Part shown: positions 4,112 to 55,958 of the stretch, in pieces
Position numbering within the stretch: the first letter of the stretch is position 1
Layout of the letters: every line of letters begins with the position of its first letter
Assembly: GCA_964397315.1 (NCBI GenBank)
Contig: CAYNHV010000001.1
Span: 12,367 to 76,366 of the forward strand
Direction of reading: 5' to 3'
Source of the DNA: an uncultured Methanosarcinales archaeon
GTDB lineage: Archaea > Nanobdellota > Nanobdellia > Woesearchaeales > UBA12501
Length of the DNA stretch: 64,000 nucleotides
The notes under the pieces: generated by a model
The model's database searches: none
What the model saw: the letters and a program-made list of their open reading frames with translations, nothing else
What the model was told of the DNA's origin: nothing
Program-made: the position numbers and the translations under genes

Positions 4112-5410
4112 TTACCTCCCAACCCCGAAGTAGGTGAAGCCGAGCTGCTTCATCTCCCCCCTGTTGTAGATGTTCCTGCCGTCAAAAATGACAGGCTTGC
4201 TCATGAGCTCTTTCATCTTCTGCCTGTCAAGATTCCTGAACTCGTCCCATTCTGTTGCTATAACAAGCGCGTCAGCTCCTTTCAAAGCCTCATAGGGTGT
4301 TTTTGCATAGGCCACATCCTTCAGTATGCTCTTTGCTGTGTGCTCTGCCTCGGGGTCAAACGCAGTTATATCCACACCTTCCTTCTGGAGCTCCCTTATT
4401 ATTGTCACTGATGGCGCATCCCTCATGTCGTCTGTTTTCGGCTTAAAAGCAAGCCCCCACACAGCTATCTTTTTTCCCTTTAAAGGTTTCAGCTCCTCCT
4501 TTATTTTGGGCACAAGCCACATCTTCTGCGCCTCATTCACCTCATCCACTGCCTTCATGATCTTCATCTCAACCCCCATCTTCTCTCCTGTTGAGATAAT
4601 GCCTTTCACGTCTTTTGGAAAGCAGCTTCCGCCGTATCCTATGCCTGCCTGGAGGAATCTGGAGCCTATCCTGGTGTCAAGGCCTATGCCCTTTGCTATC
4701 ATCTTGACATCCGCCCCTGTTTTTTCGCAGAGCCTCGCTATCTCGTTCATGAAGGATATTCTTGCTGCAAGCATGGCATTGCTCGCGTATTTTATCAGCT
4801 CTGCGCTTTTTATGTCAGTGAACAGTATGGGCCTGCCTGTCCTTTCTATTCCAGAGTATATCTTCTGCATCACCTCTTTTGCCTTTTCGCTCTCAGCCCC
4901 TATCACTATCCTGTCAGGGTTCGTGAAGTCCTTTATCGCGCTGCCCTCTCTCATGAATTCAGGATTGGACACCACATCAAAATCATGCTTTTCCTTTTGA
5001 TTCTCTGAGATTATCCTTTTCACCCGCTCTCCTGTCCCCACAGGGACCGTGCTCTTGTCAACAATCACCTTGTAGCTGTTCATGTGCTCTCCTACGTCTC
5101 TCGCAACAGCCTCAACATACTCCATGTTCACCGAACCGTCATCTGATGAGGGGGTTCCCACGGCTATGAATATGACTTCAGATTCCTGTATCGCCTTTTT
5201 CTTGTCTGTTGTGAATGACAGCCTGTTCTCCCTGAGGTTTCTTTTCACAATGTCCCCCAGGCCGGGCTCGTAGATTGGAATGTCTCCCTTGCTTAACCTG
5301 CTTATCTTCTCCTTGTCAATATCAAGGCATATCACCTCGCTTCCAAGGTCTGCCAGGCAGGCTCCTGTCACGCTTCCAACATATCCTGTCCCTATAATTG
5401 TTATTTTCAT
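4112..5410 (-). CDS. ugd: UDP-glucose/GDP-mannose 6-dehydrogenase family protein (UDP-glucose 6-dehydrogenase-like)
   Basis: 'MKITIIGTGYVGSVTGACLADLG' NAD-binding start, 'GGSCFPKD' catalytic Cys motif, 432 aa. Confidence 0.85.
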   Translation of the reverse strand: MKITIIGTGYVGSVTGACLADLGSEVICLDIDKEKISRLSKGDIPIYEPGLGDIVKRNLRENRLSFTTDKKKAIQESEVIFIAVGTPSSDDGSVNMEYVEAVARDVGEHMNSYKVIVDKSTVPVGTGERVKRIISENQKEKHDFDVVSNPEFMREGSAIKDFTNPDRIVIGAESEKAKEVMQKIYSGIERTGRPILFTDIKSAELIKYASNAMLAARISFMNEIARLCEKTGADVKMIAKGIGLDTRIGSRFLQAGIGYGGSCFPKDVKGIISTGEKMGVEMKIMKAVDEVNEAQKMWLVPKIKEELKPLKGKKIAVWGLAFKPKTDDMRDAPSVTIIRELQKEGVDITAFDPEAEHTAKSILKDVAYAKTPYEALKGADALVIATEWDEFRNLDRQKMKELMSKPVIFDGRNIYNRGEMKQLGFTYFGVGR

Positions 5411-13700: not shown

Positions 13701-14795
13701 TTATAAAGGTTTCTTTAGCTCCTTTTTCAGCTGTTTTATGAATCTCTTGTTGTCCTTCTTCTTTATCACTGCCCCGCAGGCATGCTCGTGACCCCCTCCA
13801 AACCCATCTACATTCTTCAGGGCGCTCTCAAGGGCTGCTGATATGTTATCTTCAGCTGACCTCAGGCTGTATTTTATCTCTCCTGACTTCTCCCTGCCCA
13901 CCAGTATTATCTTGGTAGGATAATTGAAAAGCATCTCGTTAGCTACCTCGCTTGAGAAGCTGAACTTCTCACCCTTGTAGATGAACACAAAGAAGTCGTC
14001 CTTTTTCACCTCTCTCTTGGCCTTTTTCAGGAGGTTTTCATAATGCTCCTCAACACTCTTGTATCTCTTGTAGAGGAACCTTCCTGCAGGGGTCTTCTGC
14101 TTCAGGATCTCATACGGGCTGTCTATCCTTGTGAGGATTTTCATGCACCTTATCACATTCTCCTTCCTGCCTTTAAGGACAAAAGAGAGTATTCTCACCA
14201 GCCTGCCTATGGGCTGGGCAAAGAGAGCTTCTTCAGGCCTTCTCACAGAAGAGTCAAGCAGCTCAGGGTACTGCCTTACAAATTCATCCCTGAAGCCGGG
14301 CATCTGCCAGTCCCCTATTGAGCCTGCCATTGCAATCCAAATGTCCTGCTTCACAACCTCATAGCATATCCTTGATATGCATGTGTCATCCCCAGGCTCT
14401 TTTTTCCTTGGGTTAAAGTAGAGCACCCTGTCCCTCTTGAGGGGGGTGTGGTGGTCAACCCAGACAACAGAAATGCCCATCTCAGACATGTCATCAATGA
14501 AATCCTGCTCTACCATTGCAATGTCAAGAACAAAAACCTTGTCAGGCAGGTACTCCTTTACCTTTCTGGTGTAATTCTTCCTGTCAATCTTGGGTGTTGT
14601 CTTTACAATGGATCCCTTGCCCTCACCTATCCTCCTGTAGAAGAGCAGGAACGAAGCCAGGCCGTCTGCGTCATCATGGAAGAATATGAGGGGCCTCTTG
14701 CAGGAGGAGAGTTCCTCCCTGAGCCTCTGGATGTGTCTTTTCTCAAGCATGATCTCACCAACACTGAATTCAAAAAAAGATGATATTATGGGCAT
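13701..14795 (-). CDS. DHH-family phosphoesterase (NrnA/RecJ-like, DHH + DHHA1)
   Basis: 'FFHDDADGLAS' (motif I/II), 'VDHHTP' (DHH) and 'GGGHEHACG' (DHHA1 GGGH). 364 aa. Confidence 0.75.
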   Translation of the reverse strand: MPIISSFFEFSVGEIMLEKRHIQRLREELSSCKRPLIFFHDDADGLASFLLFYRRIGEGKGSIVKTTPKIDRKNYTRKVKEYLPDKVFVLDIAMVEQDFIDDMSEMGISVVWVDHHTPLKRDRVLYFNPRKKEPGDDTCISRICYEVVKQDIWIAMAGSIGDWQMPGFRDEFVRQYPELLDSSVRRPEEALFAQPIGRLVRILSFVLKGRKENVIRCMKILTRIDSPYEILKQKTPAGRFLYKRYKSVEEHYENLLKKAKREVKKDDFFVFIYKGEKFSFSSEVANEMLFNYPTKIILVGREKSGEIKYSLRSAEDNISAALESALKNVDGFGGGHEHACGAVIKKKDNKRFIKQLKKELKKPL

Positions 14796-25953: not shown

Positions 25954-26032
25954 AGAGCTGTTTTTGCTGATCTCTCATGGTATTACCCACCCTTATTCCA
26001 CAACCATCAGGCAGGTTTTCTCTTTCTGAAAC

Positions 26033-26133
26033 TGCACAACTTCCAGCTTCTGCATCCAATAAGCCCGCCCAGTAATATGCTTAAAGCGCGCTTAGGTGGA
26101 GTTGGTGCGCTAAGCATATTGAAGGGGGTGGGA
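26033..26133. repeat. conserved ~100-bp intergenic element, copy 1 (contains a 13-bp-stem hairpin)
   Basis: ~85% identical to 29946..30078. The core is 'CTTCTGCATCCAATAAGCCC...ATATGCTTAAAGCGC...TGGAGTTGGTGC...AGCATAT..AAGGGGG'. Lies upstream of a + strand gene. Confidence 0.5.
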
Positions 26134-26212
26134 GATTGCCAAACGAAGTTTGGCAAGTCTAATACTGCAAAACAAAGTTTTGCAGGCCTGAAAATACTTT
26201 GTATTTTCAGTA
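26134..26212. other. three tandem perfect hairpins (8-10 bp AU-rich stems) in a long non-coding leader
   Basis: TTGCCAAAC-GAAG-TTTGGCAA; CTGCAAAAC-AAAG-TTTTGCAG; CTGAAAATAC-TTT-GTATTTTCAG. Confidence 0.5.
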
Positions 26213-26468: not shown

Positions 26469-27428
26469 ATGGCAAAGTATCTTGTTACAGGAGGCGCGGG
26501 ATTCATAGGCAGCCATCTTGCTGAAACTCTTGCCAAACAGGGCCATAACGTCACTGTGGTGGACAACCTTTTTGACGGGAAGAGGGAGAACCTCAGCAGT
26601 GTCATGGACAGCATAGAGTTTATTGAGGGAGACATCCGCGACAAGCAGGTGATGGGCCGCGCCTGCAAAGGCGCTGATTTCATACTCCACCAGGCAGCGA
26701 GAAGGTCTGTTCCAGCCTCTCTAAAGGACCCTTTTGAGTATAATGACGTGAACATCAACGGCACTCTTAACATTCTTGAGGCAGCAAGAAGGAATGATGT
26801 CAGGAGGGTCTTGTTAGCTTCCTCCTCCTCTGTCTACGGTGATGTGAAGGAATTCCCTGAAAAGGAGTCTTTCAGGCCTGACCCAAGGTCTCCGTATGCC
26901 CTGACAAAGCTGGCAGGAGAGCATTACCTGAGCATATACTGGAAGCTCTACGGCCTTGAGACAGTCTCACTAAGGTACTTCAACGTGTTCGGCCCGCGCC
27001 AGGACCCTAACAGCCAGTACGCTGTTGTCATGCCTCTCTTCATAAAGGCAGTTTCAGAGGGAAATCAGCCGAAAATATTTGGGGATGGGGAGCAGAGCAG
27101 GGATTTCACTTACATAGCAAATGTTGTTGAAGGCAACCTGAAGGCCTGCGCTGCGCCAAAGGAGAAGGCTGCAGGAGAGGTCTTTAATATTGCTGACGGA
27201 AACTCCATAAGCGTCAATGAGATCGCGGGAAAGATAATCGAGATGTTAGGAAAAGAAATAAAGCCTGTGCACGCGGAAGAGAGACCCGGTGATGTGATGA
27301 AAACGCAGGCTGACAACACAAAGGCAAAAAAGCTGCTTGGCTACAAGGGGGATGTCAGCTTTGATGATGGATTGAGGAGAACTGTTGAATGGTTCAGCAA
27401 AGAATTCAGCAGAAATAAACAGCCTTAA
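26469..27428 (+). CDS. NAD-dependent epimerase/dehydratase (UDP-sugar 4-epimerase, WbpP/UDP-glucuronate epimerase-like)
   Basis: 'LVTGGAGFIGSHL', a YxxxK region and C-terminal 'DGEQSRDFTYI'. 319 aa. Confidence 0.85.
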   Translation: MAKYLVTGGAGFIGSHLAETLAKQGHNVTVVDNLFDGKRENLSSVMDSIEFIEGDIRDKQVMGRACKGADFILHQAARRSVPASLKDPFEYNDVNINGTLNILEAARRNDVRRVLLASSSSVYGDVKEFPEKESFRPDPRSPYALTKLAGEHYLSIYWKLYGLETVSLRYFNVFGPRQDPNSQYAVVMPLFIKAVSEGNQPKIFGDGEQSRDFTYIANVVEGNLKACAAPKEKAAGEVFNIADGNSISVNEIAGKIIEMLGKEIKPVHAEERPGDVMKTQADNTKAKKLLGYKGDVSFDDGLRRTVEWFSKEFSRNKQP

Positions 27429-28015
27429 ACGCCCAGATATTCTATTATGGCGCTTGCGCAGGCCTCAATATCCTGGCTCCCTGAATCAACAGTTATCTCA
27501 GGACCTTCAGGATCCTCATAAGGGGCGGAAACTCCTGTGAAGTCATCTATCTCCCCCTGCCTTGCCTTCCTGTAAAGGCCCTTGGGATCGCGCTTCTCGC
27601 ACTCCTCAACAGGGCACCTTACATAAACCTCAACAAAATCATCCCCTATCAGCTTTCTGGCAAAATCCCTCTCCTTCCTGTACGGGCTTATGAAGCAGAC
27701 AATAGTGTAAAGTCCCGAGTCATAGAACAGCCTTGCGACCTCAGCTATCCTTCTTATGTTCTCCCTCCTGTCCTCCTCTGAGAAGCCCAGGTCGCTGTTA
27801 AGGCCGTGCCTTACGTTATCACCGTCAAGAACATAGGATACAACACCCTTCTCAAAGAGCTTTTTCTCAACCTCCCTGGCTATTGATGACTTGCCTGAGC
27901 TTGGCAGGCCTGTGAACCACAGCACCCTGTTATTAAACCCGAGAAGCTTTGACCTGCTGTCTTTTGATACATGGCCGTCATGCCACACCACATTTGATGA
28001 TTTTCCTGATCCCAT
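27425..28015 (-). CDS. cysC: adenylylsulfate (APS) kinase
   Basis: P-loop 'GLPSSGKSS' and the canonical 'LDGDNVRHGLNSDLGFSEEDRRENIRR'. 196 aa. Confidence 0.85.
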   Translation of the reverse strand: MGSGKSSNVVWHDGHVSKDSRSKLLGFNNRVLWFTGLPSSGKSSIAREVEKKLFEKGVVSYVLDGDNVRHGLNSDLGFSEEDRRENIRRIAEVARLFYDSGLYTIVCFISPYRKERDFARKLIGDDFVEVYVRCPVEECEKRDPKGLYRKARQGEIDDFTGVSAPYEDPEGPEITVDSGSQDIEACASAIIEYLGV

Positions 28016-28039: not shown

Positions 28040-28954
28040 TTAAAGCATTGCCTCAAGGAATTTCACAAGCTCCTCAGCGCAGTCCTCCATTGACTTTTTC
28101 TCTGTGTCAAGCACTATATCAGGATTCTCCGGCTCCTCATAATCCTGGGAAACGCCTGTAAAGTCCTTTATCTCCCCCTTCTCAGCTTTCCTGTAAAGTC
28201 CTTCCTCATCCCTCTTCTTGGATGTCTCAACAGATGATTTCACGTACACCTCAACATAATGGCCGTGCTTCTCAAGCTCTTTTCTTATCCTCTTTCTCTG
28301 CGACTCGTAAGGGGTTATGAACGAGCAAAGGACTATGGCCCTGTTCCGTGAGAGCATCTCAGCAATGTGCATGGCCCTCTCAAGGTTGGTGTCCCTGTCC
28401 TTCTTGGAGAAACCGAGGTCTTTTGATATTGTCTTACGGAGTATTGAGCCGTCAAGCCTCTCAGCCTGGATGCCTCTCTGCTCCAGCTTGTAGGCTGTAA
28501 GCTCTGCTATCTCTGACTTGCCTGACTTGGGCAGGCCTGTGAGCCACACAACAACGCCCTTTCCAGTGAGATAATCCTCAAGAATCTTGTCAGCTCCCTC
28601 TGGTATGAACTCCTTCCACGAGAAGTCATTCTTCTCAATCCTGTCCCTTATCTCTGTCGCGGATATCTGCTTTATGTTGTCAGGCACCTCTATCTCATTG
28701 ACCTCATACCCGACTCCCCTGCCGTAGTTTATGCTTTCAATGTCATCTATTATCATGACCTTTGCATCCACCTTCAGCTTTGACATCGCCGCCTCTATCA
28801 TCCTCTTTCTCATCAGGGGAGGGTAGATGTCATAAGGCGTGTCCCTCACTAGTATCAGGAGGGGCTTTCCCTCATCAATCTTCTTCTGCATTATTGCAAG
28901 GTGGCCCTTGTGGAATGGAGTCCATCTTCCAATAAAAACAGCTCTCTTAGTCAT
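28040..28954 (-). CDS. two-domain protein: HxGH (NMNAT/cytidylyltransferase-like) nucleotidyltransferase domain fused to an APS-kinase-like domain
   Basis: N-terminal 'AVFIGRWTPFHKGHLAIM' is an HxGH motif. The C-terminal P-loop is 'GLPKSGKSE', and 'LDGSILRKTISKDLGFSKKDRDTNLER' is degenerate relative to canonical DGDN(V/I)RHGL. 304 aa. Confidence 0.7.
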   Translation of the reverse strand: MTKRAVFIGRWTPFHKGHLAIMQKKIDEGKPLLILVRDTPYDIYPPLMRKRMIEAAMSKLKVDAKVMIIDDIESINYGRGVGYEVNEIEVPDNIKQISATEIRDRIEKNDFSWKEFIPEGADKILEDYLTGKGVVVWLTGLPKSGKSEIAELTAYKLEQRGIQAERLDGSILRKTISKDLGFSKKDRDTNLERAMHIAEMLSRNRAIVLCSFITPYESQRKRIRKELEKHGHYVEVYVKSSVETSKKRDEEGLYRKAEKGEIKDFTGVSQDYEEPENPDIVLDTEKKSMEDCAEELVKFLEAML

Positions 28955-29750
28955 TCTTGATCATCTCCAGAAGGGTGCTGTGTGACCTGTTGTTTGACAC
29001 TATAAAGCCTCCTTCCACCAGAGTGGAGGGCTTGTTGTATTTTAAAGGTTTCCCCTCCAGGCCTGTCATGATGCCTCCAGCCTCCCTGACTACGATGTCC
29101 ATTGCGCAGATATCCCACTCATGGACAGGACCGAGCCTTATGTAAACATCAGCCTCTCCTGCTGCTATAAGGCATCCCTTGACCGAGCTTCCGCTGGTAA
29201 TCGTAGATTTGAAGCCTGCTTCTTTTATTATTCTAAGGAGATTTTCTGAAGCGTGAGACCTGCTCCTTACTATTGTCATATCACTTATTTTGCCATTGCC
29301 TGAAACGCTTATCCTCCTTTTGCTCCCTTTTTTCTCGTGGAACGCCCCTCCCCCTTTCACAGCCCAGTACAGGTCTTCCTTTGCAGGCACGAATATCACT
29401 CCCAGCACTGGCTCTCCCTGCATGACAAGGGCTATGTTCACAGTAAACTCGCCAAGCTTGTTTATGAACTCCCTCGTGCCGTCCAGAGGGTCCACCACCC
29501 ACAAGGCATCTGCCCCAAGCCTTCCTGTGTCATCCTCTGCCTCCTCTGTGAGCATGGGATGTGGGAATCTTTTCAGCTCTTCTGTTATTATGTCATTGGC
29601 TGCATGGTCCGCTTCTGTCACAGGATTGTCCTCTCTTCCACCCTTCTGCCTGACACTGACACCCTCCCTTTCCTGAGAGTAGAACTCCATAATCCTCCTG
29701 CCGGCTTTCAGGGCTGCATTCCTGGCTGCCTCAAGCTCTTTCTCAAACAT
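28947..29750 (-). CDS. cysQ: inositol-monophosphatase-fold phosphatase, CysQ-like 3'(2'),5'-bisphosphate nucleotidase candidate
   Basis: 'WVVDPLDGTREF' and 'EADVYIRLG' IMPase/CysQ motifs, with the PAPS genes as context. 267 aa. Confidence 0.7.
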   Translation of the reverse strand: MFEKELEAARNAALKAGRRIMEFYSQEREGVSVRQKGGREDNPVTEADHAANDIITEELKRFPHPMLTEEAEDDTGRLGADALWVVDPLDGTREFINKLGEFTVNIALVMQGEPVLGVIFVPAKEDLYWAVKGGGAFHEKKGSKRRISVSGNGKISDMTIVRSRSHASENLLRIIKEAGFKSTITSGSSVKGCLIAAGEADVYIRLGPVHEWDICAMDIVVREAGGIMTGLEGKPLKYNKPSTLVEGGFIVSNNRSHSTLLEMIKND

Positions 29751-29945
29751 GATTCAGAGCCTGCAGGCCAGGTTTATATAGTTTTTGCAAGGATTAATCA
29801 AGAGGATGAGGTGTTCCAAGAGTGGTTTGCTTATGATGCCAGGCACTTCCAGGGGGGATAATAAGTTTATGCTGATAAATCCTGGTACTTCCCTCCCTTG
29901 CGAGGCTGGGTTAATGCTGATAGCTCATGGTAATTCCCGCCCTTA

Positions 29946-30078
29946 CTGCACAACTGCTTAGCAGGTTCACACCTTCTGGAACAGCACGACTCTCTGCTTC
30001 TGCCTCTAATAAGCCCTCCCAATGATATGCTTAAAGCGCTCTGTGGAGTTGGTGCTCTGAGCATGTTAAAGGGGGGGA
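29946..30078. repeat. conserved ~100-bp intergenic element, copy 2 (with ~45-nt insertion relative to copy 1)
   Basis: Same core as 26033..26133. Located ~250 bp upstream of the + strand sulfotransferase gene. Confidence 0.5.
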
Positions 30079-30332
30079 GAACTCTGGAGGAATTCACCCT
30101 TATAAAACGAGCATCATTCTTAGAACTCATAAACAGGAATGCAGCAAAGCTTGCATTAACCACCATATTTAGAGGAGGCTCAATTTCCTGCGCGTGAACT
30201 GAGTAACGCCGTTCTGGCGGCAATATCTGGAGGATTTACGAATCTTAAATAATATTCTGAGTGGCGGTCAACTTTGCTTGTGCTGAAGTGTTTTCAGCAA
30301 TCTTTAAATATGCGAAGTTTTGCTTAAACTAC

Positions 30333-30893
30333 ATGGTCAACTACATAGTCTCAGGCTGCCCCAGGTCAGGAACCTCCATGCTCATGAGGATACTGAACAA
30401 TGCAGGATTTCCAATTGCCAGGGATGAGAAGAGGAAGGCTGACAAGGACAATGTGCACGGATATTTTGAGGTGCATAACATAATAAACAAGCTTAAGGAC
30501 AATCCCGAGCTTGTGTCCAGGTATGACAACAAGATTCTTAAGGTGACGCACTTCGGCATCCAGTACCTTCCTGAGAGGGAAGAAGGATGGTACAAGGTGA
30601 TATACATTGAGAGGGACATTGAGGAGGTTCTTGACTCAATGGAGAAGATGATGGGCCAGTCTGACGAGCAGAGAGAGGAAACAAGGCAGGCCTTCCTGAA
30701 GTTTGACAAGAAGGTGAGAGAGCTCATGGAGGAGAGGGAGGACATTGATTACATAATAGTGAGCCACAGGAAGCTGATAAAAAAGCCAGATCCTGAGATT
30801 GAAAGGATAATAAGTTTCTACGGCATTGACCCATCAAGAAAGAAGGCAATGCTTGAGGCGATTGACCCAAAGAGCTACAGGAACAGGAGATAG
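30333..30893 (+). CDS. sulfotransferase family protein
   Basis: 5'-PSB-like 'IVSGCPRSGTSML' at the N-terminus and an 'IERD' region. Start chosen at 'MVNYIV'; the track ORF begins 24 codons upstream at 30261. Confidence 0.6.
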   Translation: MVNYIVSGCPRSGTSMLMRILNNAGFPIARDEKRKADKDNVHGYFEVHNIINKLKDNPELVSRYDNKILKVTHFGIQYLPEREEGWYKVIYIERDIEEVLDSMEKMMGQSDEQREETRQAFLKFDKKVRELMEEREDIDYIIVSHRKLIKKPDPEIERIISFYGIDPSRKKAMLEAIDPKSYRNRR

Positions 30894-31146: not shown

Positions 31147-33354
31147 TCACTCCCACTGCTTGATGTAGGTGACAACCCTTCCCCCCACAGGGTCTGAGAC
31201 ATCACTCAGAAGCTTGAACTTCTCAACCCCTATGCCATTCATGAAGTAAAGCCTTGCGAACACGCTGTCAGTAAGCTCTGTTCTCATGAGAACAGCCTTG
31301 TAAGCTCCTGTTTCAGGATACACCAGGAGGGTGTAAGGGCCTGTCTGGTTTGACTCAAAAATGCTGTCCTGCCCCACTATAATCACTGGGAATTGCTGGC
31401 CCTTATACTCCAGCTCTCCGCTTTTCATGTCAAGCACAAAGTTCTTCCCGCATTTCATAATTCTCTGCTCCTTGTCCTGGGAGCAGCGCGAGGGCTGCGA
31501 TATGGAAGGTATCTTTGGAAGGCTGAAGTCCTCGTGCTCCTCTGCATTGAAGTCCCAGTTTGTGTAGTATCTGAAAACATCCATCTTGCCTATCATGTCA
31601 TTGTCAAGCACAAGATACCCCTTCTGAGGGTTTTTGCAGAAGTCCTGGCTGAGGTTTATCTCGGGGCTTCTGCTTCTTTTTCCGCAGTCCAGCATCCTGA
31701 ATATCCTTATCGCCTCTGTCTCGTTTGACGTAAGGGCCCTCGCTGTCCAGTAGAGCCTTGGATTACCACTGCCGCCTGCAGCGTTGTTTATGAGCACATC
31801 ATCATCAAGATAATACTCATAAAGGTAGCCGTTGTGCCACCACAGATTTACTATGAAATCACCTGTTGCATTCTCCAGAATGTCCCTGCTTGCCTTCTCA
31901 ACAGGGCTTGTCATCAGGGGCGTCCTGGCTGTCCTTTCCTGGATGGCAGGAGAGAGTGATGCTGAGATTATGACAAGGAGTATGATGGTGAGTATAGCAA
32001 AAGAGTGCTTAACAGGAATCCTGGGCTTCAGCTTCTTGTCTGCAAAATTCAGCAGATGGGTGCTGCCGTAGGATATCAGAATAACAAAGGGCAGGCCGAA
32101 GAAGGAAAGGAACCTTATTGACTTCCAGCCAACAAAGAGCATCATAAGGAACCATAACGATGTAAAGACAGCGTATTTTGTTTTTTTGCCTGGCTTCCTG
32201 TGATGATAAATCATCATTAATAGTGACAGGAGGGCGAGAGCCGCGAGAATGCTGCCGTTAAGGACATAAAGCAGCGCGCTTTTTCCAGGCTGGGCTACCT
32301 CCATTCTTTCTTTTGCTGAGAAAAGCTCTGTTGTTGTTGAGAGTGCGCTGGGAAAGTTTCCTGTCTCCTCAAGCATGCCTAGCTTCTTCTTGACCCTGTC
32401 CACCTCGCTTCTCACGGATTTTGTGTCATCAGCTATTGAGAACACGCCTATTACAATTACAGTGAGTATTACTGCAACGACATAGTATTTTCTTGAGCCT
32501 TTCTCTTTTATTTTCCAGTATAACTCATATGCTGCATAAAGCACTGCAAACAAGATGATTATGAATATGATATAGTACCAACCTGACCAGGTGAACCTGA
32601 ACAGCAGTGTGACAGGCATTATCAGCAGAAGACAGATTATCTGCCTTATGTTGTTTCTTGCCTTGTCTTTCAGGCTTTTTCCCTTGTTCTTCATGCCAAT
32701 GCCTTCAAAGAACAGGAATACTATCAGGGCTGAGAGGAAGAGGTTGAGGAAGTTCGTGTCAACAAATCCTGCCTGCGTGGCTGTGAAGTACTGGGGGTGT
32801 ACGGCGAGCAGGAATGACGCAAGAAAGCCTCCCATGTTGTTCGTGAGCTTTCTTGCTGTGAAGAAAACAAGGACTATTGTGAGGAGGGAGAATATTGTGG
32901 GAAGCCAGAATGCAGTTCCCATCAGAGTGGCATTGCTGTTGAATGCGCTGGCCAGTTTGTAGGTGTTTGCCTCAAGCCACGGCAGGAATGACCTTGCTTC
33001 ACCGCCCTCAAGAACATGGTTTGTCCTCCTGAGATAGGTGTATGAATCAACACCATAGATGTAGGTGTTTCCATTATCATCCCTGAAAGCGCTCTTGTAC
33101 TGATCTGAGACCTCTTTTATCTTCTCTTTTGCCTGGCTTGTGCCTATAAGATTTTCGCTGCCCGTGCTCCTGTAGTATGCATTAACATTCTCCTCTGCCA
33201 TCCTGTCAATTGCAGGAAGGCCTGCCGCGTAGAGGTGGAGGGAGAGGCAGACTATGAGGGGGATGAGGATGAGAAATGCTGTCTGGCGCTTTTGCAGGAA
33301 CTTCCCTGCTTGTTTCATGCCTATTGAGACATCATCTTTTTTCTTTGAGGCCAT
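31147..33354 (-). CDS. aglB: AglB/STT3-like oligosaccharyltransferase (variant WWDYG motif: WWHNG)
   Basis: 735 aa. A TM1-first-loop 'GVDSYTYLRRTNHVLEGG' resembles the STT3 EL1 'DPYFNYRATRYLVENG'. There are ~12 TM segments, followed by a C-terminal soluble domain with 'NLWWHNGYLYEY'. Confidence 0.6.
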   Translation of the reverse strand: MASKKKDDVSIGMKQAGKFLQKRQTAFLILIPLIVCLSLHLYAAGLPAIDRMAEENVNAYYRSTGSENLIGTSQAKEKIKEVSDQYKSAFRDDNGNTYIYGVDSYTYLRRTNHVLEGGEARSFLPWLEANTYKLASAFNSNATLMGTAFWLPTIFSLLTIVLVFFTARKLTNNMGGFLASFLLAVHPQYFTATQAGFVDTNFLNLFLSALIVFLFFEGIGMKNKGKSLKDKARNNIRQIICLLLIMPVTLLFRFTWSGWYYIIFIIILFAVLYAAYELYWKIKEKGSRKYYVVAVILTVIVIGVFSIADDTKSVRSEVDRVKKKLGMLEETGNFPSALSTTTELFSAKERMEVAQPGKSALLYVLNGSILAALALLSLLMMIYHHRKPGKKTKYAVFTSLWFLMMLFVGWKSIRFLSFFGLPFVILISYGSTHLLNFADKKLKPRIPVKHSFAILTIILLVIISASLSPAIQERTARTPLMTSPVEKASRDILENATGDFIVNLWWHNGYLYEYYLDDDVLINNAAGGSGNPRLYWTARALTSNETEAIRIFRMLDCGKRSRSPEINLSQDFCKNPQKGYLVLDNDMIGKMDVFRYYTNWDFNAEEHEDFSLPKIPSISQPSRCSQDKEQRIMKCGKNFVLDMKSGELEYKGQQFPVIIVGQDSIFESNQTGPYTLLVYPETGAYKAVLMRTELTDSVFARLYFMNGIGVEKFKLLSDVSDPVGGRVVTYIKQWE

Positions 33355-54394: not shown

Positions 54395-55146
54395 GGCATG
54401 TAAATATTGATATAAATAAGAACCTGATTAAAGGATTAGGTGAAAATGATTTGTCTTTCCTTAAAAGAGTTTACTCAAAGAATATTAATAAATACAGAGA
54501 AAGAATTAAGATGATTGGATTTGAAGATAAAAACGCTGTGCTTGATGCAGGATGTGGTTTCGGACAGTGGCTTTTTTCCCTTGCAGATATGAACAAAAAG
54601 GTGGTTGGAATAGATTTTTCACAAGAGAGAGTTGATGTATGCAAGGAAATAGCACAAAAGAATAATATAAACAATGTTGAAGTGATTAAATCAAGCATAA
54701 CTAATACAGAATTGAAAGAAGAATCTTTTGATGCCATATTTAGTTATAGTTCAATCTATTTTACTGATTACAGAAAAACACTTAAAGAATTTTACAGGTT
54801 GCTTAAAAAAGGGGGAGTATTGTACTTCACGACCAATAGTTGGGGAAAGTATATATCTGATATCATCAATAATCCTTATCCAACCAGCGATTTTTATCCA
54901 AGATGGTATGCTATAAAGACAATATGGAATACATTCAAGAACAAAAGAGAAGGTTTCTCTATGGAAAACGGAGCCTTGGTTATGTCAAAAAAAAAGACTA
55001 AGAGAATAATGCAAAAAATAGGTTTTTATGATATAAGAATCGATTATGACGGCCACTTATGCACAAAAGACCGAGAACCGCTCCCTTTAGTTCCAGAAAC
55101 ATATATAGGCATGACTCATTCTTTTGAGGTGTTAGCAAGAAAATGA
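54391..55146 (+). CDS. class I SAM-dependent methyltransferase
   Basis: Motif I 'VLDAGCGFGQW'. 251 aa. Confidence 0.75.
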   Translation: MRHVNIDINKNLIKGLGENDLSFLKRVYSKNINKYRERIKMIGFEDKNAVLDAGCGFGQWLFSLADMNKKVVGIDFSQERVDVCKEIAQKNNINNVEVIKSSITNTELKEESFDAIFSYSSIYFTDYRKTLKEFYRLLKKGGVLYFTTNSWGKYISDIINNPYPTSDFYPRWYAIKTIWNTFKNKREGFSMENGALVMSKKKTKRIMQKIGFYDIRIDYDGHLCTKDREPLPLVPETYIGMTHSFEVLARK

Positions 55147-55958
55147 CATGCAACATCTTTTTCATAGTGGGTTGTAGCAGATCTGGCACCACAGCCCTGG
55201 TAAAAATTCTCAATACAGCAGTTAATGCAGAGGTGTTTACCGAACAGGAACCTAAACTCTGCATAAATGCAAGGATAAACTATGAGTTTGGAATGCCTCG
55301 CAGTAAAGATTACATAAAAGAAAGCAAGAGTAAGGCAATCAAGGCTACTCTCTCTAAAGGGAAAAAATATATGGATAAGAACCCTAATTATCTATTCTTT
55401 ATAGATGAACTGATGGCTAACTTTGATTGTAAATTCATTTTTGTTATCAGAGATGGGAGAGATGTAGTAAGAAGTGCTATGGATTATGATGAGTATGGAA
55501 AGAATCTTTACAGAACATTTGAAGATGAAGATAACCCAAAAACAGTGCAACCTGAAGAAGATTTCTGGGATTTTGCAAGACTAAGGCCAAAAAAAACAGA
55601 TACTATATTTTATAGTTGGAAGAGTCTGACAAGATTTGAGAAAGCATCATGGTACTGGGCAAAATTCAATGGTCTGATACTTAAAAAGATAGAGAAGAAG
55701 GATAAAGACAGATTTATTACTGTGGATATCTCAAACATAAATCTAAAAGAAATTGAAAAAATATTCAATTTTGCAGGGCTTGAAGGATTTAATAGAGACA
55801 TAATAAGCAAAATGCTCAAAGAAAGAATCAACTCAGCACAAGAAAAGTGGGGCCTGAAAGATATCTTTCCAAAATGGGATAAATGGGATAATAATATGAA
55901 AGAATCGTTTAGCAGATATGCAGGACGCATGATGAAAAGATTAGGTTATAATAAATAA
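55143..55958 (+). CDS. sulfotransferase family protein
   Basis: 5'-PSB 'FIVGCSRSGTTAL' and 3'-PB 'VIRDGRDVVRSAM'. 271 aa. Confidence 0.75.
   Translation: MTCNIFFIVGCSRSGTTALVKILNTAVNAEVFTEQEPKLCINARINYEFGMPRSKDYIKESKSKAIKATLSKGKKYMDKNPNYLFFIDELMANFDCKFIFVIRDGRDVVRSAMDYDEYGKNLYRTFEDEDNPKTVQPEEDFWDFARLRPKKTDTIFYSWKSLTRFEKASWYWAKFNGLILKKIEKKDKDRFITVDISNINLKEIEKIFNFAGLEGFNRDIISKMLKERINSAQEKWGLKDIFPKWDKWDNNMKESFSRYAGRMMKRLGYNK

Follow-up and report, generated by a model that had tools for sequence, protein, structure and literature searches.

The window analysed here, a 64-kb stretch of DNA taken as a whole from a Woesearchaeota-like DPANN archaeon, encodes a two-domain protein which is likely to be a minimal, non-canonical ATP sulfurylase joined to a pseudokinase domain. 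This reading was inferred from comparative genomics and is not supported by any biochemical evidence. The identities of the domains, the states of their motifs, the conservation of the family and the statistics of gene fusion and gene neighbourhood are shown by the analyses described below.

A nucleotidyltransferase-kinase fusion gene in a cysQ-cysC operon

The fusion protein is encoded by an open frame of 304 aa (28040..28954, minus strand, as are all of its domains and motifs given below). Its N-terminal part (residues 1-131; 28562..28954) is a small HIGH-type nucleotidyltransferase domain, the candidate minimal ATP sulfurylase, and its C-terminal part (residues 132-304; 28040..28561) is an APS-kinase-family domain (PF01583, E=5e-53), predicted to be an inactive, nucleotide-binding pseudokinase. 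The open frame is not a chance one, because homologs of similar length (300-310 aa, 55-89% identity) form about 75 clusters in DPANN archaea.

The gene order in the window is cysQ - fusion - cysC, and this arrangement is repeated in a second locus (L001). The stand-alone canonical APS kinase gene, cysC (27425..28015, minus strand), lies 24 nt downstream of the fusion and its product carries LDGDNVRHGL and scores far above the cut-offs of TIGR00455 (252.7 bits, cut-off 138.7) and PRK03846 (265.6, cut-off 163). On the other side, the start of the fusion is overlapped by 8 nt by a gene for a CysQ-like 3'(2'),5'-bisphosphate nucleotidase, or PAP phosphatase (28947..29750, minus strand; PF00459, E=1e-55). 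TIGR01331 (CysQ) was by far the top-scoring family for this gene, with 228.3 bits falling just under the cut-off of 228.8. Both neighbours had been named as such in the initial annotation, and with this small reservation on CysQ the claim held.

A PAPS-dependent sulfotransferase is encoded divergently from the operon (30261..30893, plus strand; PF00685, E=1.4e-11; PF13469, E=1.1e-9), and a second sulfotransferase is found in a distal glycan cluster (55143..55958, plus strand; PF13469, E=1.1e-11). Convergent with cysC is a gene for an NAD-dependent UDP-sugar epimerase of the TviC/GalE-like type (26469..27428, plus strand; PF01370, E=6e-69), and an AglB/STT3 oligosaccharyltransferase (31147..33354, minus strand; PF02516, E=1.3e-23) is the probable user of the (sulfated) glycan. 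A flanking 150-nt repeat matched no Rfam family and no tRNA. Neither Sat nor CysD/CysN was found in the 64-kb window by a six-frame motif scan, by Pfam searches of 38 ORFs or by phmmer with E. coli CysD/CysN, and the Sat motifs QxRNPxHxxH and GRDHAG did not occur in any frame. The claim that no canonical sulfate adenylyltransferase is present in the 64 kb thus held for the window by motif, Pfam and phmmer scans alike.

The N-terminal domain belongs to a conserved mini HIGH nucleotidyltransferase family

The segment FIGRWTPFHKGHLAIM was confirmed in the fusion protein. Its HxGH part, H15-K-G-H18 in GRWTPFHKGH, is encoded at 28901..28912 and is the signature with which HIGH nucleotidyltransferases bind the alpha and beta phosphates of ATP. 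ISATEIR (28646..28666) provides ISxTxxR, the other ATP-binding signature of this superfamily. Between the two lie Arg37, in V-R-D-T after strand 2 (28844..28846), and a loop with the sequence G78-R79-G-V81-G82-Y83 (28706..28723).

At 50% identity, homologs of the small domain fall into 153 clusters; the members examined numbered 172. G9, R10, H15, G17, H18 and G78 were invariant in 172/172, and Arg was found at position 37 in 171/172. The loop was conserved to a similar extent (R79 in 170/172; V81, G82 and Y83 each in 171/172), as was the ISxTxxR motif (S98 in 169/172, T100 in 168/172 and R103 in 171/172). Residues of the catalytic type are thus invariant despite an overall identity of ~40%. 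The family signature can be written as G-R-x2-P-x-H-x-G-H ... (V/I)-R-(D/N/E) ... D-I-E-x-x-N-x-G-R-x-V-G-Y ... I-S-x-T-x-x-R, within 110-135 aa; the window protein has all of its residues and matches the family profile with E=2e-57. We conclude that the small domain represents a distinct, conserved and previously unannotated family, defined in this analysis and termed here the APS-enzyme-linked mini HIGH nucleotidyltransferases.

By sequence and fold the small domain is nearest to archaeal NMNAT; both NMNAT and PPAT resemble it more closely than Sat does. Matches to the CTP_transf_like and NMNAT families were sub-threshold only; the NMNAT profiles PRK01153 and TIGR01527 gave 46.0 bits (cut-off 127) and 37.5 bits (cut-off 181.2), and 19/19 diverse family members likewise fell below the NMNAT cut-offs. 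GRxxPxHxGH and ISxTxxR are common to the small domain and to archaeal NMNAT/NadM (MJ0541, 1F9A; M. thermautotrophicus, 1EJ2). However, 1F9A could be aligned at residues 4-76 and 110-153 only, and profile positions 77-84, eight residues of the family, correspond to the 33 residues 77-109 of NMNAT, so that a segment of about 25-33 residues is swapped for an 8-residue S-x-N-Y-G-R-G-V loop. In NMNAT, residues 77-109 bear nicotinamide-binding residues together with one strand and one helix, and it is in place of this ~33-residue NMN-binding segment that the G-R-G-V-G-Y loop sits. A further difference is that Arg37 replaces a Gly of NMNAT ('IGIGSAQ' in the alignment to 1F9A). It is inferred that the loop closes a small anion pocket and that Arg37 is a family-specific contact for the anion, sulfate; no pocket geometry was inspected for either. 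A bona fide NMNAT or PPAT ortholog was ruled out by the sub-threshold scores and the deletion of the substrate segment. The initial annotation had named an NMNAT/CoaD ortholog with a complete pocket as an outcome that would refute a sulfurylase role, and this outcome was not met, the central segment being missing.

The small domain is equally not a canonical Sat. That family (PF01747, with a PUA-like N-domain) has a gathering score of 24.3, and the 131-aa domain reached 13.4 bits over the HxGH region alone. The ATPS domain of Sat/MET3/PAPSS (EC 2.7.7.4) nevertheless belongs to the same HIGH-nucleotidyltransferase superfamily and catalyses the reaction proposed here. In bifunctional Sat-CysC proteins (Aquifex 2GKS; PRK05537) the domain order is that of the window fusion, and the PRK05537 alignment spans residue 83 and the ISxT helix and runs on into the kinase-like domain. 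A structure prediction of the two-domain protein, proposed as a check in the initial annotation, gave as its top Foldseek matches 1M8P and 2GKS, two bifunctional proteins in which ATP sulfurylase and APS kinase follow each other in the order of the window fusion.

The kinase-like domain has lost its catalytic Asp

The C-terminal domain was identified as an APS-kinase-family domain by PF01583 (179.7 bits, cut-off 21.1) and TIGR00455 (190.5 bits, cut-off 138.7), and its structure model superposes on APS kinases at 1.3-2.2 Å RMSD. The P-loop GLPKSGKS is retained (28514..28537), and the DGDN loop reads LDGS instead of the catalytic LDGD (28445..28456, in the context LDGSILRKTI), the second Asp being lost. 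The initial description of the protein, an HxGH domain followed by an APS-kinase-like domain with the P-loop GLPKSGKS(E) and the altered LDGSILRKTI, therefore held, with all motifs located. Among 81 homologs, K146 of the P-loop and the APS-binding R173 and R187 were invariant. In the window's clade the position of the second Asp drifts among S/G/K/N/H/R/E/A/T, with P-loop and Arg unchanged. In competent APS kinases this Asp serves as catalytic base or positions Mg-ATP. In human APS kinase (PAPSS1), D87A or D89A abolishes activity (PMC8528679), and the equivalent Asp of M. tuberculosis CysC is the proposed catalytic base (PMC4373884). From the motif state and this mutagenesis literature, the C-terminal domain is predicted to be a pseudokinase that would not phosphorylate APS.

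Loss of the Asp was closely tied to the presence of a second kinase. A separate CysC was found in 12/12 loci with a degenerate DGD loop in the fusion and in 0/15 loci with an intact loop (Fisher p=5.8e-8, in which independence is overstated, since the loci share kinship); an NJ tree suggested two or more loss groups, but few events. As Asp loss always occurs with a separate canonical CysC, it fits a non-catalytic, binding or regulatory role, although the role itself remains inferred. The suggestion of a part for the fusion protein in channelling or regulating APS/PAPS was supported by these observations. The window's clade thus documents a transition from enzyme to pseudoenzyme, in which the kinase domain decays once a stand-alone CysC is present.

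The same plan, an active sulfurylase module followed by a dead APS-kinase-like domain with an active APS kinase encoded by a separate gene, is known from fungal ATP sulfurylase (Penicillium chrysogenum 1I2D/1M8P), the top structural match of the full-length model. In the fungal protein the dead domain no longer has a P-loop, and the PAPS that it binds is an allosteric inhibitor. In contrast, the kinase-like domain of the window protein retains the P-loop and only its DGD loop has decayed, and the sulfurylase modules are unrelated in size and motifs. Two-domain sulfate-activation fusions with one pseudo-enzyme domain are also known from Thiobacillus denitrificans (3CR8) and Entamoeba histolytica (EhAPSK), where a degenerate sulfurylase-like domain modulates the other domain (PMC13213808). 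The polarity there is reversed, in that the sulfurylase-like domain is dead and the kinase active, whereas in the window protein it is the kinase-like domain that is degenerate.

The small domain accompanies APS-consuming enzymes

The comparison covered 169 bacterial, archaeal and viral loci, with flanks of +-8-10 kb and crude ORF calling. The loci are phylogenetically non-independent, and some cellular DNA may be present among the IMG/VR contigs. The small domain was fused to an APS kinase, in either order, or encoded <500 bp from one in 152/169 loci. Cellular loci comprised 59 stand-alone genes, 17 small+APSK and 13 APSK+small fusions, and viral loci 67, 1 and 12, respectively. An APSK ORF lay within 500 bp of the stand-alone gene in 47/59 cellular and 62/67 viral cases, frequently with overlap. 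By the TIGR00455 and PF01583 cut-offs, which they exceed, the partner kinases are canonical APS kinases. Four Nitrospirales loci are without APSK; here the small gene follows Rrf2, NirA/sulfite reductase(+TusA) and a thioredoxin-dependent APS reductase (TIGR02055, 272 bits, cut-off 235). The small domain thus accompanies two different APS-consuming enzymes, at the position usually held by sat or cysDN.

The wider neighbourhood had the same character. CysQ was present in 16 loci, and sulfotransferases occurred beside polysaccharide genes in at least 32/64 of the loci longer than 12 kb. Epimerases were the most frequent non-kinase neighbour family (40 loci). On haloarchaeal megaplasmids a sulfotransferase gene and an APSK+small fusion, in this order, form a compact module, and a Saprospiraceae operon and locus L008 have a sulfation context like the other loci. 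Three stand-alone Marinoscillum copies (L078, L079 and L081) had no sulfur genes nearby. The isolated Xylella and Xanthomonas phage contexts were uninformative.

These data bear on the possibility that the small domain is an adenylyl- or cytidylyltransferase for another phosphorylated substrate, such as NMN, 4'-phosphopantetheine or a sugar or polyol phosphate, the product being 3'-phosphorylated by the kinase. This is unlikely. As mentioned above, the domain lacks the NMN-binding segment and scores far under the equivalog cut-offs; moreover, the partner kinases are canonical APS kinases, and the genes that recur nearby encode sulfotransferases, CysQ, APS reductase and sulfite reductase rather than enzymes of NAD or CoA metabolism. 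A CoA-synthase-like (PPAT+DPCK) or NAD(P)-synthase-like module, suggested by the chemistry of a nucleotidyltransferase followed by a 3'-kinase, was ruled out by the neighbourhood and the canonical APSK partners.

Sat motifs were found in none of the 169 loci, the screen being of two signature motifs only and within limited flanks. CysDN, checked by phmmer with E. coli CysD/CysN, adjoins the small gene in 1/169 loci, L037, where Arg79 is replaced by His, the sole substitution at this position. CysDN/NodPQ is a functional analogue that occupies the same operon position, beside cysC, cysH and sulfotransferases, and has an unrelated fold (PP-loop ATPase + EF-Tu-like GTPase) with GTPase coupling. 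NodPQ provides a dedicated supply of PAPS for glycan sulfation.

It could be envisaged instead that the small domain has no catalytic activity and serves APS kinase as a nucleotide sensor or regulator, with APS supplied by a canonical Sat or CysDN encoded elsewhere. In favour of this, dead sulfurylase-like domains that modulate APSK have a precedent (PMC13213808) and 3CR8 was among the fold matches; further, the small domain and CysDN coexist in L037, and the absence of Sat has not been shown genome-wide. However, the precedent dead domains have lost their substrate-binding motifs, whereas HxGH, ISxTxxR and four Arg are invariant or nearly so in the 172 members, which span bacteria, archaea and viruses. 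The small domain is also found without a kinase, beside APS reductase and sulfite reductase, and in the window's clade the degenerating part is the kinase domain, not the nucleotidyltransferase. A regulatory partner is thus an improbable reading.

Proposed mechanism

We favour the view that the fusion acts in a PAPS-producing cysQ - fusion - cysC operon for glycan sulfation. The small domain, descended from NMNAT-like ancestors, would catalyse the attack of sulfate on the ATP alpha-phosphate to give APS and PPi. ATP would be held by GRxxPxHxGH and ISxTxxR in the manner of NMNAT and Sat, and the short G-R-x-V-G-Y loop in place of the NMN segment would, together with Arg37, leave a pocket that fits a small oxyanion. 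The kinase-like domain, with P-loop and APS-binding Arg kept and the catalytic Asp gone, may bind APS, PAPS or a nucleotide without phosphorylating APS. It could capture or hand over APS and so pull the unfavourable sulfurylase equilibrium, serve as a scaffold that dimerises with CysC, or act as a regulator, as the inactive kinase-like domain does in fungal ATP sulfurylase. Canonical CysC would then make PAPS, sulfotransferases would consume it and CysQ would clear PAP.

Comparative genomics supported the initial hypothesis of a minimal HxGH domain supplying APS, but activity remains unproven. Sulfate as the substrate and the catalytic competence of the small domain are inferred from fusion, adjacency and operon context only, and its sulfate specificity, given the greater nearness to NMNAT and PPAT, likewise rests on context alone. 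Further points speak against a sulfurylase. The reaction is thermodynamically very unfavourable, and a small enzyme without GTPase coupling is unproven; in addition, CysDN is adjacent in L037, and the absence of sat/cysDN is known for the 64-kb window and the flanks of the loci, not for whole genomes, and many carriers (Chitinophagaceae, haloarchaea) probably possess canonical enzymes elsewhere.

A different reaction on APS or sulfate might also be considered, such as that of an APS:phosphate adenylyltransferase (ADP-sulfurylase-like), or one with another NTP or with selenate or thiosulfate. The context links the protein to APS/PAPS metabolism but to no specific reaction, and the pocket residues differ from those of Sat. 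Against this, NTP alpha-phosphate transfer with release of PPi is what HIGH and ISxTxxR motifs typically indicate, and the partner enzymes require APS as substrate, so that a side reaction using up APS would work against them. The fold of the known ADP-sulfurylases is a different one. We regard this alternative as very improbable.

Implications of a possible minimal ATP sulfurylase

All sulfate assimilation and all PAPS-dependent sulfation start from sulfate activation, and to our knowledge no sulfate-activating enzyme types are recognised beyond Sat and CysDN. The literature searched contained no description of a small or non-canonical ATP sulfurylase or of a nucleotidyltransferase-APSK fusion, which is not proof of novelty. 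A bolder reading, to which we lean with reserve, is that the family constitutes a third, evolutionarily independent class of ATP sulfurylase, NMNAT-derived and of ~110-135 aa, which in the window's DPANN clade is joined to an APS/PAPS-binding pseudokinase for channelling or feedback control. The hypothesis is directly testable in cultured carriers, among them Halostagnicola larsenii XH-48 (WP_049954638.1) and a number of strains of Haladaptatus and Natronococcus.

If true, members of the class would occur widely, both in marine bacteria (SAR406, SAR11, Flavobacteriales, Nitrospirales) and archaea (DPANN, haloarchaea, MGIII, Thaumarchaeota) and on viral contigs, of which hundreds carry them. 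As partners of APS kinase or APS reductase they would close the 'missing sat' gaps left in pathways of sulfur assimilation and sulfation. At ~120 aa the enzyme would be smaller than any known to activate sulfate, which is of use for engineering PAPS supply, and it would show cleanly how an NMNAT-type scaffold can be adapted to an inorganic anion. Viruses would carry a complete two-gene PAPS module, and pathway reconstructions scored on sat/cysDN would under-call sulfate activation in abundant marine lineages, DPANN archaea, haloarchaea and viruses.

The fusion gene and its genomic setting

The minus-strand ORF 28040..28954 codes for a protein of 304 aa. Residues 132-283 are a strong match to the APS-kinase family (PF01583, E=5e-53; TIGR00455, 190.5 bits against a cut-off of 138.7), and residues 1-131 gave cytidylyltransferase-like and NMNAT family matches, all sub-threshold. 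The initial annotation had described an HxGH nucleotidyltransferase (NTase) fused to an APS-kinase-like domain; this observation was confirmed by ORF, motif and family matches, with HxGH, ISATEIR, the P-loop GLPKSGKS and LDGS in place of LDGD all at the expected coordinates. Its flanking genes were upheld by the same means: a CysQ-like PAP phosphatase (28947..29750) lies upstream with an 8-nt overlap, and a canonical APS kinase, CysC (27425..28015; LDGDNVRHGL), lies 24 nt past the fusion gene. A sulfotransferase (30261..30893) and AglB (31147..33354) are encoded near this operon and a second sulfotransferase at 55143..55958, the remaining window holding mostly surface-glycan biosynthesis genes, an A-type ATPase operon and an SMC protein. 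Neither Sat nor CysD/CysN was detected in the 64-kb window by a six-frame motif scan, Pfam searches of 38 ORFs and phmmer with E. coli CysD and CysN, and the claim that no canonical sulfate adenylyltransferase is present thus held at that scope. Fusion homologues of the same length (55-89% identity) were found in Woesearchaeota, Nanobdellota and Pacearchaeota MAGs, which makes the source organism a DPANN archaeon.

Three further features of the window were recorded. A direct repeat of ~150 nt (77% identity; 25980-26135 and 29930-30080) lies either side of the epimerase-cysC-fusion-cysQ block; no further copy occurs in the window, and neither an Rfam match nor a tRNA was found. It could be a regulatory element common to both sites, or what is left of a mobile or duplicated boundary. 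A DHH/DHHA1-family phosphoesterase (13701-14795, minus strand) adjoins the A-type ATPase operon. pAp phosphatases are among the members of this family, and an atypical PAP phosphatase has been reported in M. thermolithotrophicus (PMC10322725), which we take to be a DHH/DHHA1-family example; the phosphoesterase of the window could be a second enzyme for PAP removal. Between two glycan clusters (39393-42074) lie an AAA_14/DUF4143 ATPase and an AbiEii-type nucleotidyltransferase toxin, resembling a type IV toxin-antitoxin or abortive-infection system.

The small domain defines an unannotated nucleotidyltransferase family

Sequence searches agreed that the closest solved relatives of the small N-terminal domain are NMNATs, the alignment being limited to the two ends. 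Family profile positions 6-76 correspond to residues 4-76 of MJ0541 and positions 85-130 to residues 110-153, and eight family residues (S-x-N-Y-G-R-G-V) stand opposite 33 NMNAT residues. The region lost holds the nicotinamide nucleotide in NMNAT structures. Whereas NMNATs have the Gly of IGIGSAQ, the small domain has the all but invariant Arg37 (V-R-D-T; numbering of the window protein). Comparison with ATP-sulfurylase and NMNAT profiles, a check proposed in the initial annotation, showed that all 19 diverse members match NMNAT models far under the cut-offs (46 against 127 bits; 37.5 against 181), and that 14 of the 19 match PF01747 weakly, around the HxGH region only. Hence the small domain is not a bona fide NMNAT, nor is it a canonical Sat, but a shortened HIGH nucleotidyltransferase of NMNAT type which has kept the ATP-binding signatures.

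A profile search of 1.84 billion representatives returned 153 clusters (50% identity) at E<=1e-30, in which stand-alone proteins of 108-200 aa are mixed with fusions of 250-430 aa. Members are publicly named only 'cytidyltransferase-like protein', 'NMN adenylyltransferase', 'adenylyl-sulfate kinase' or 'kinase', the last including PHROGs phrog_10255, a short-kinase and small-domain fusion. No small or non-canonical enzyme of this kind was described in the literature searched, which is not proof of absence. Overall identity across the family is ~40%, and G9, R10, H15, G17, H18 and G78 are invariant in the 172 members collected, with R37, V81, G82, Y83 and R103 kept in 171, R79 in 170, S98 in 169 and T100 in 168. 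This pattern, with four conserved arginines, resembles an active site for anionic substrates, an inference from sequence alone. A purely regulatory role for the small domain appears unlikely, as its catalytic-type residues are invariant. R79 deviates in two members only, L037 (a CysDN-bearing locus discussed below) and L023. The latter (4121-4507) and L022 (9998-10387), both DPANN loci, carry stand-alone small NTases without a kinase domain inside the fusion clade; L023, with R37Q and a deletion of Arg79, is by its residues probably a decaying copy.

Physical association with APS kinase

Scanning species-representative genomes turned up 80 loci, with 104 relatives in all, in DPANN, Saprospiraceae, Chitinophagaceae, Flavobacteriales, Nitrospirales, Marinimicrobia, Pelagibacteraceae, MGIII, Thaumarchaeota, Acidobacteriota and Gammaproteobacteria. 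With the window and eight previously retrieved loci added, this cellular set contained 30 APS-kinase fusions in both domain orders (17 with the small domain first, 13 with the kinase first) and 59 stand-alone small genes, 47 of which have an APS-kinase ORF within 500 bp, mostly abutting or overlapping. Across cellular and viral loci, the small domain is physically tied to APS kinase in 152 of 169. Domain identities, motif states, conservation and these fusion and neighbourhood statistics are shown directly, subject to crude ORF calling, flanks of no more than 10 kb and the phylogenetic non-independence of the loci. Recurrent neighbours were UDP-sugar epimerases and dehydrogenases, glycosyltransferases, Wzx/Wzz/Wza-type proteins, sulfotransferases (in at least 32 of the 64 loci longer than 12 kb) and CysQ (16 loci); the Marinoscillum copies had no informative neighbours. 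It could be envisaged that the small domain is an ordinary adenylyltransferase for another phosphate ester, working with a matching 3'-kinase. However, its substrate segment is deleted, its partners are canonical APS kinases and its neighbours are sulfur-specific, and this explanation is unlikely.

In many marine lineages the partner kinase is short (~150 aa), divergent and a genuine PF01583 member (63 bits). This subtype of ~140-155 aa (GQPGSGKT...IDGDDLR...DYSxxGRxxNI...HTxExRGxE) occurs in marine bacteria and archaea (L045, L051, L057, L060, L067-L075, L082 and L085), always paired with a small NTase and often in overlapping genes; it passes PF01583 without the usual C-terminal lid motifs. 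Separately, the kinase-first fusion of L006 (1-20909) lies in a gene cluster with a DegT aminotransferase and nine or more radical-SAM genes, which may specify a pathway for a sulfated natural product or glycan.

In IMG/VR, 384 viral contigs carried a relative, many of 100-385 kb. The best 80 comprised 13 fusions and 67 stand-alone genes, 62 of the latter with an APS kinase within 500 bp, so that 75 of these 80 loci (L089-L168) are fused or linked. IMG/VR may contain cellular DNA, and these loci could either be a two-gene module with which viruses activate sulfate or reflect contamination by cellular sequences. Xylella phage Salvo (L171, 15167-15913) and related Xanthomonas and Stenotrophomonas phages, isolated siphophages of 55 kb, encode a 248-aa short-kinase and small-NTase fusion annotated 'kinase' (phrog_10255), close to a MazG-like pyrophosphatase and a 'cysteine dioxygenase'; the Xylella and Xanthomonas phage contexts are of little informative value. 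Megaplasmids of cultured haloarchaea carry a compact module of a sulfotransferase, a kinase-first fusion annotated 'cysC' and a YqcI/YcgG-family gene (L169, 8494-9345, on the Halostagnicola larsenii XH-48 plasmid; L170; and eight other megaplasmids), and in the H. larsenii protein both kinase and NTase motifs are intact.

An APS-reductase operon and the absence of neighbouring Sat motifs

Four Nitrospirales loci lack APS kinase, and there the small gene is fourth in a conserved array, following an Rrf2 regulator, a NirA/sulfite-reductase-family protein with a TusA domain and a thioredoxin-dependent APS reductase (TIGR02055, 272.3 bits against a cut-off of 235.3; CC...CxxC and ECGLH motifs). 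This pathway consumes APS directly and is complete but for an ATP sulfurylase; by gene context, the small NTase would occupy the usual place of sat or cysDN. Members of the family are thus found alongside two APS consumers that differ in mechanism, and we regard the Nitrospirales context as decisive for the sulfurylase reading. Being kinase-free, it also counts against the purely regulatory role. A different APS- or oxyanion-related reaction is considered very unlikely.

Two Sat signature motifs were found in none of the 169 loci within flanks of +-8-10 kb, whole genomes not being covered, and homology searches of the same flanks detected CysD and CysN in one, L037 (5117-8259), from an Acidobacteriota MAG. 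Here cysD/cysN are divergently adjacent to a small-first fusion, the small domain of which has His at the otherwise invariant Arg79. This could fit Arg79 mattering for a function made redundant by CysDN; a single case, it proves nothing.

The degenerate kinase domain

APS kinase activity depends on the second Asp of the DGDN loop: D87A or D89A abolishes activity of the human enzyme (PMC8528679), and in M. tuberculosis CysC the corresponding Asp has been proposed as the catalytic base (PMC4373884). The window fusion has LDGS at this site. Where the context of a fusion is known, a degenerate loop (LDGS, IDGS, LDSK, IDSK, LDSN, LDGG, LQSK or LNST) is accompanied by a separate canonical CysC at the locus in 12 of 12 cases, and an intact (L/I)DGD in 0 of 15 (nominal Fisher p=5.8e-8, inflated by shared ancestry). 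In an NJ tree, LDGD is kept in outgroups and one nested DPANN subclade, and degenerate forms make up at least two groups. The loop position drifts widely, the first Asp sometimes also being lost (LNSK, MNSK, LTGS, LHGG), and despite this drift the P-loop Lys and APS-binding arginines are invariant, the signature of a nucleotide-binding pseudo-enzyme. The kinase domain is thus likely to be such a pseudo-enzyme, a conclusion drawn from sequence alone without binding data. The top structural match of the full-length model was fungal ATP sulfurylase 1M8P, in which an active sulfurylase module likewise precedes an APS-kinase-like domain that is dead, the active kinase being encoded by a gene of its own; for the window protein this arrangement remains a proposal.

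A proposed miniature ATP sulfurylase

In the mechanism we propose, the N-terminal domain would bind ATP via GRxxPxHxGH and ISxTxxR, use Arg37 and the G-R-x-V-G-Y loop to form a small pocket for sulfate, and catalyse adenylyl transfer to sulfate, giving APS and PPi. The tethered pseudokinase would capture APS (or sense PAPS) and hand on to CysC, perhaps via an APS-kinase-type dimer interface, and this capture and hand-over would help to pull an unfavourable equilibrium. CysC would then form PAPS, from which sulfotransferases would sulfate glycans for AglB-dependent N-glycosylation or other surface polymers, CysQ removing PAP. ATP and sulfate binding, catalysis and the pseudokinase role are all inferred, with neither biochemistry nor model coordinates. 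The interpretation of the initial annotation, a non-canonical ATP sulfurylase or a fusion acting in APS/PAPS channelling or regulation, is supported by independent comparative evidence, its activity being inferred. Overall, in the absence of biochemistry, we lean modestly towards a mini ATP sulfurylase with a pseudokinase. The reaction and the superfamily are known; new would be the miniature enzyme family, unannotated in every source checked, and its pseudokinase fusion. The claim is a broad one, and is directly testable by complementation or in cultured haloarchaea, which offer a tractable system for the sulfurylase hypothesis.
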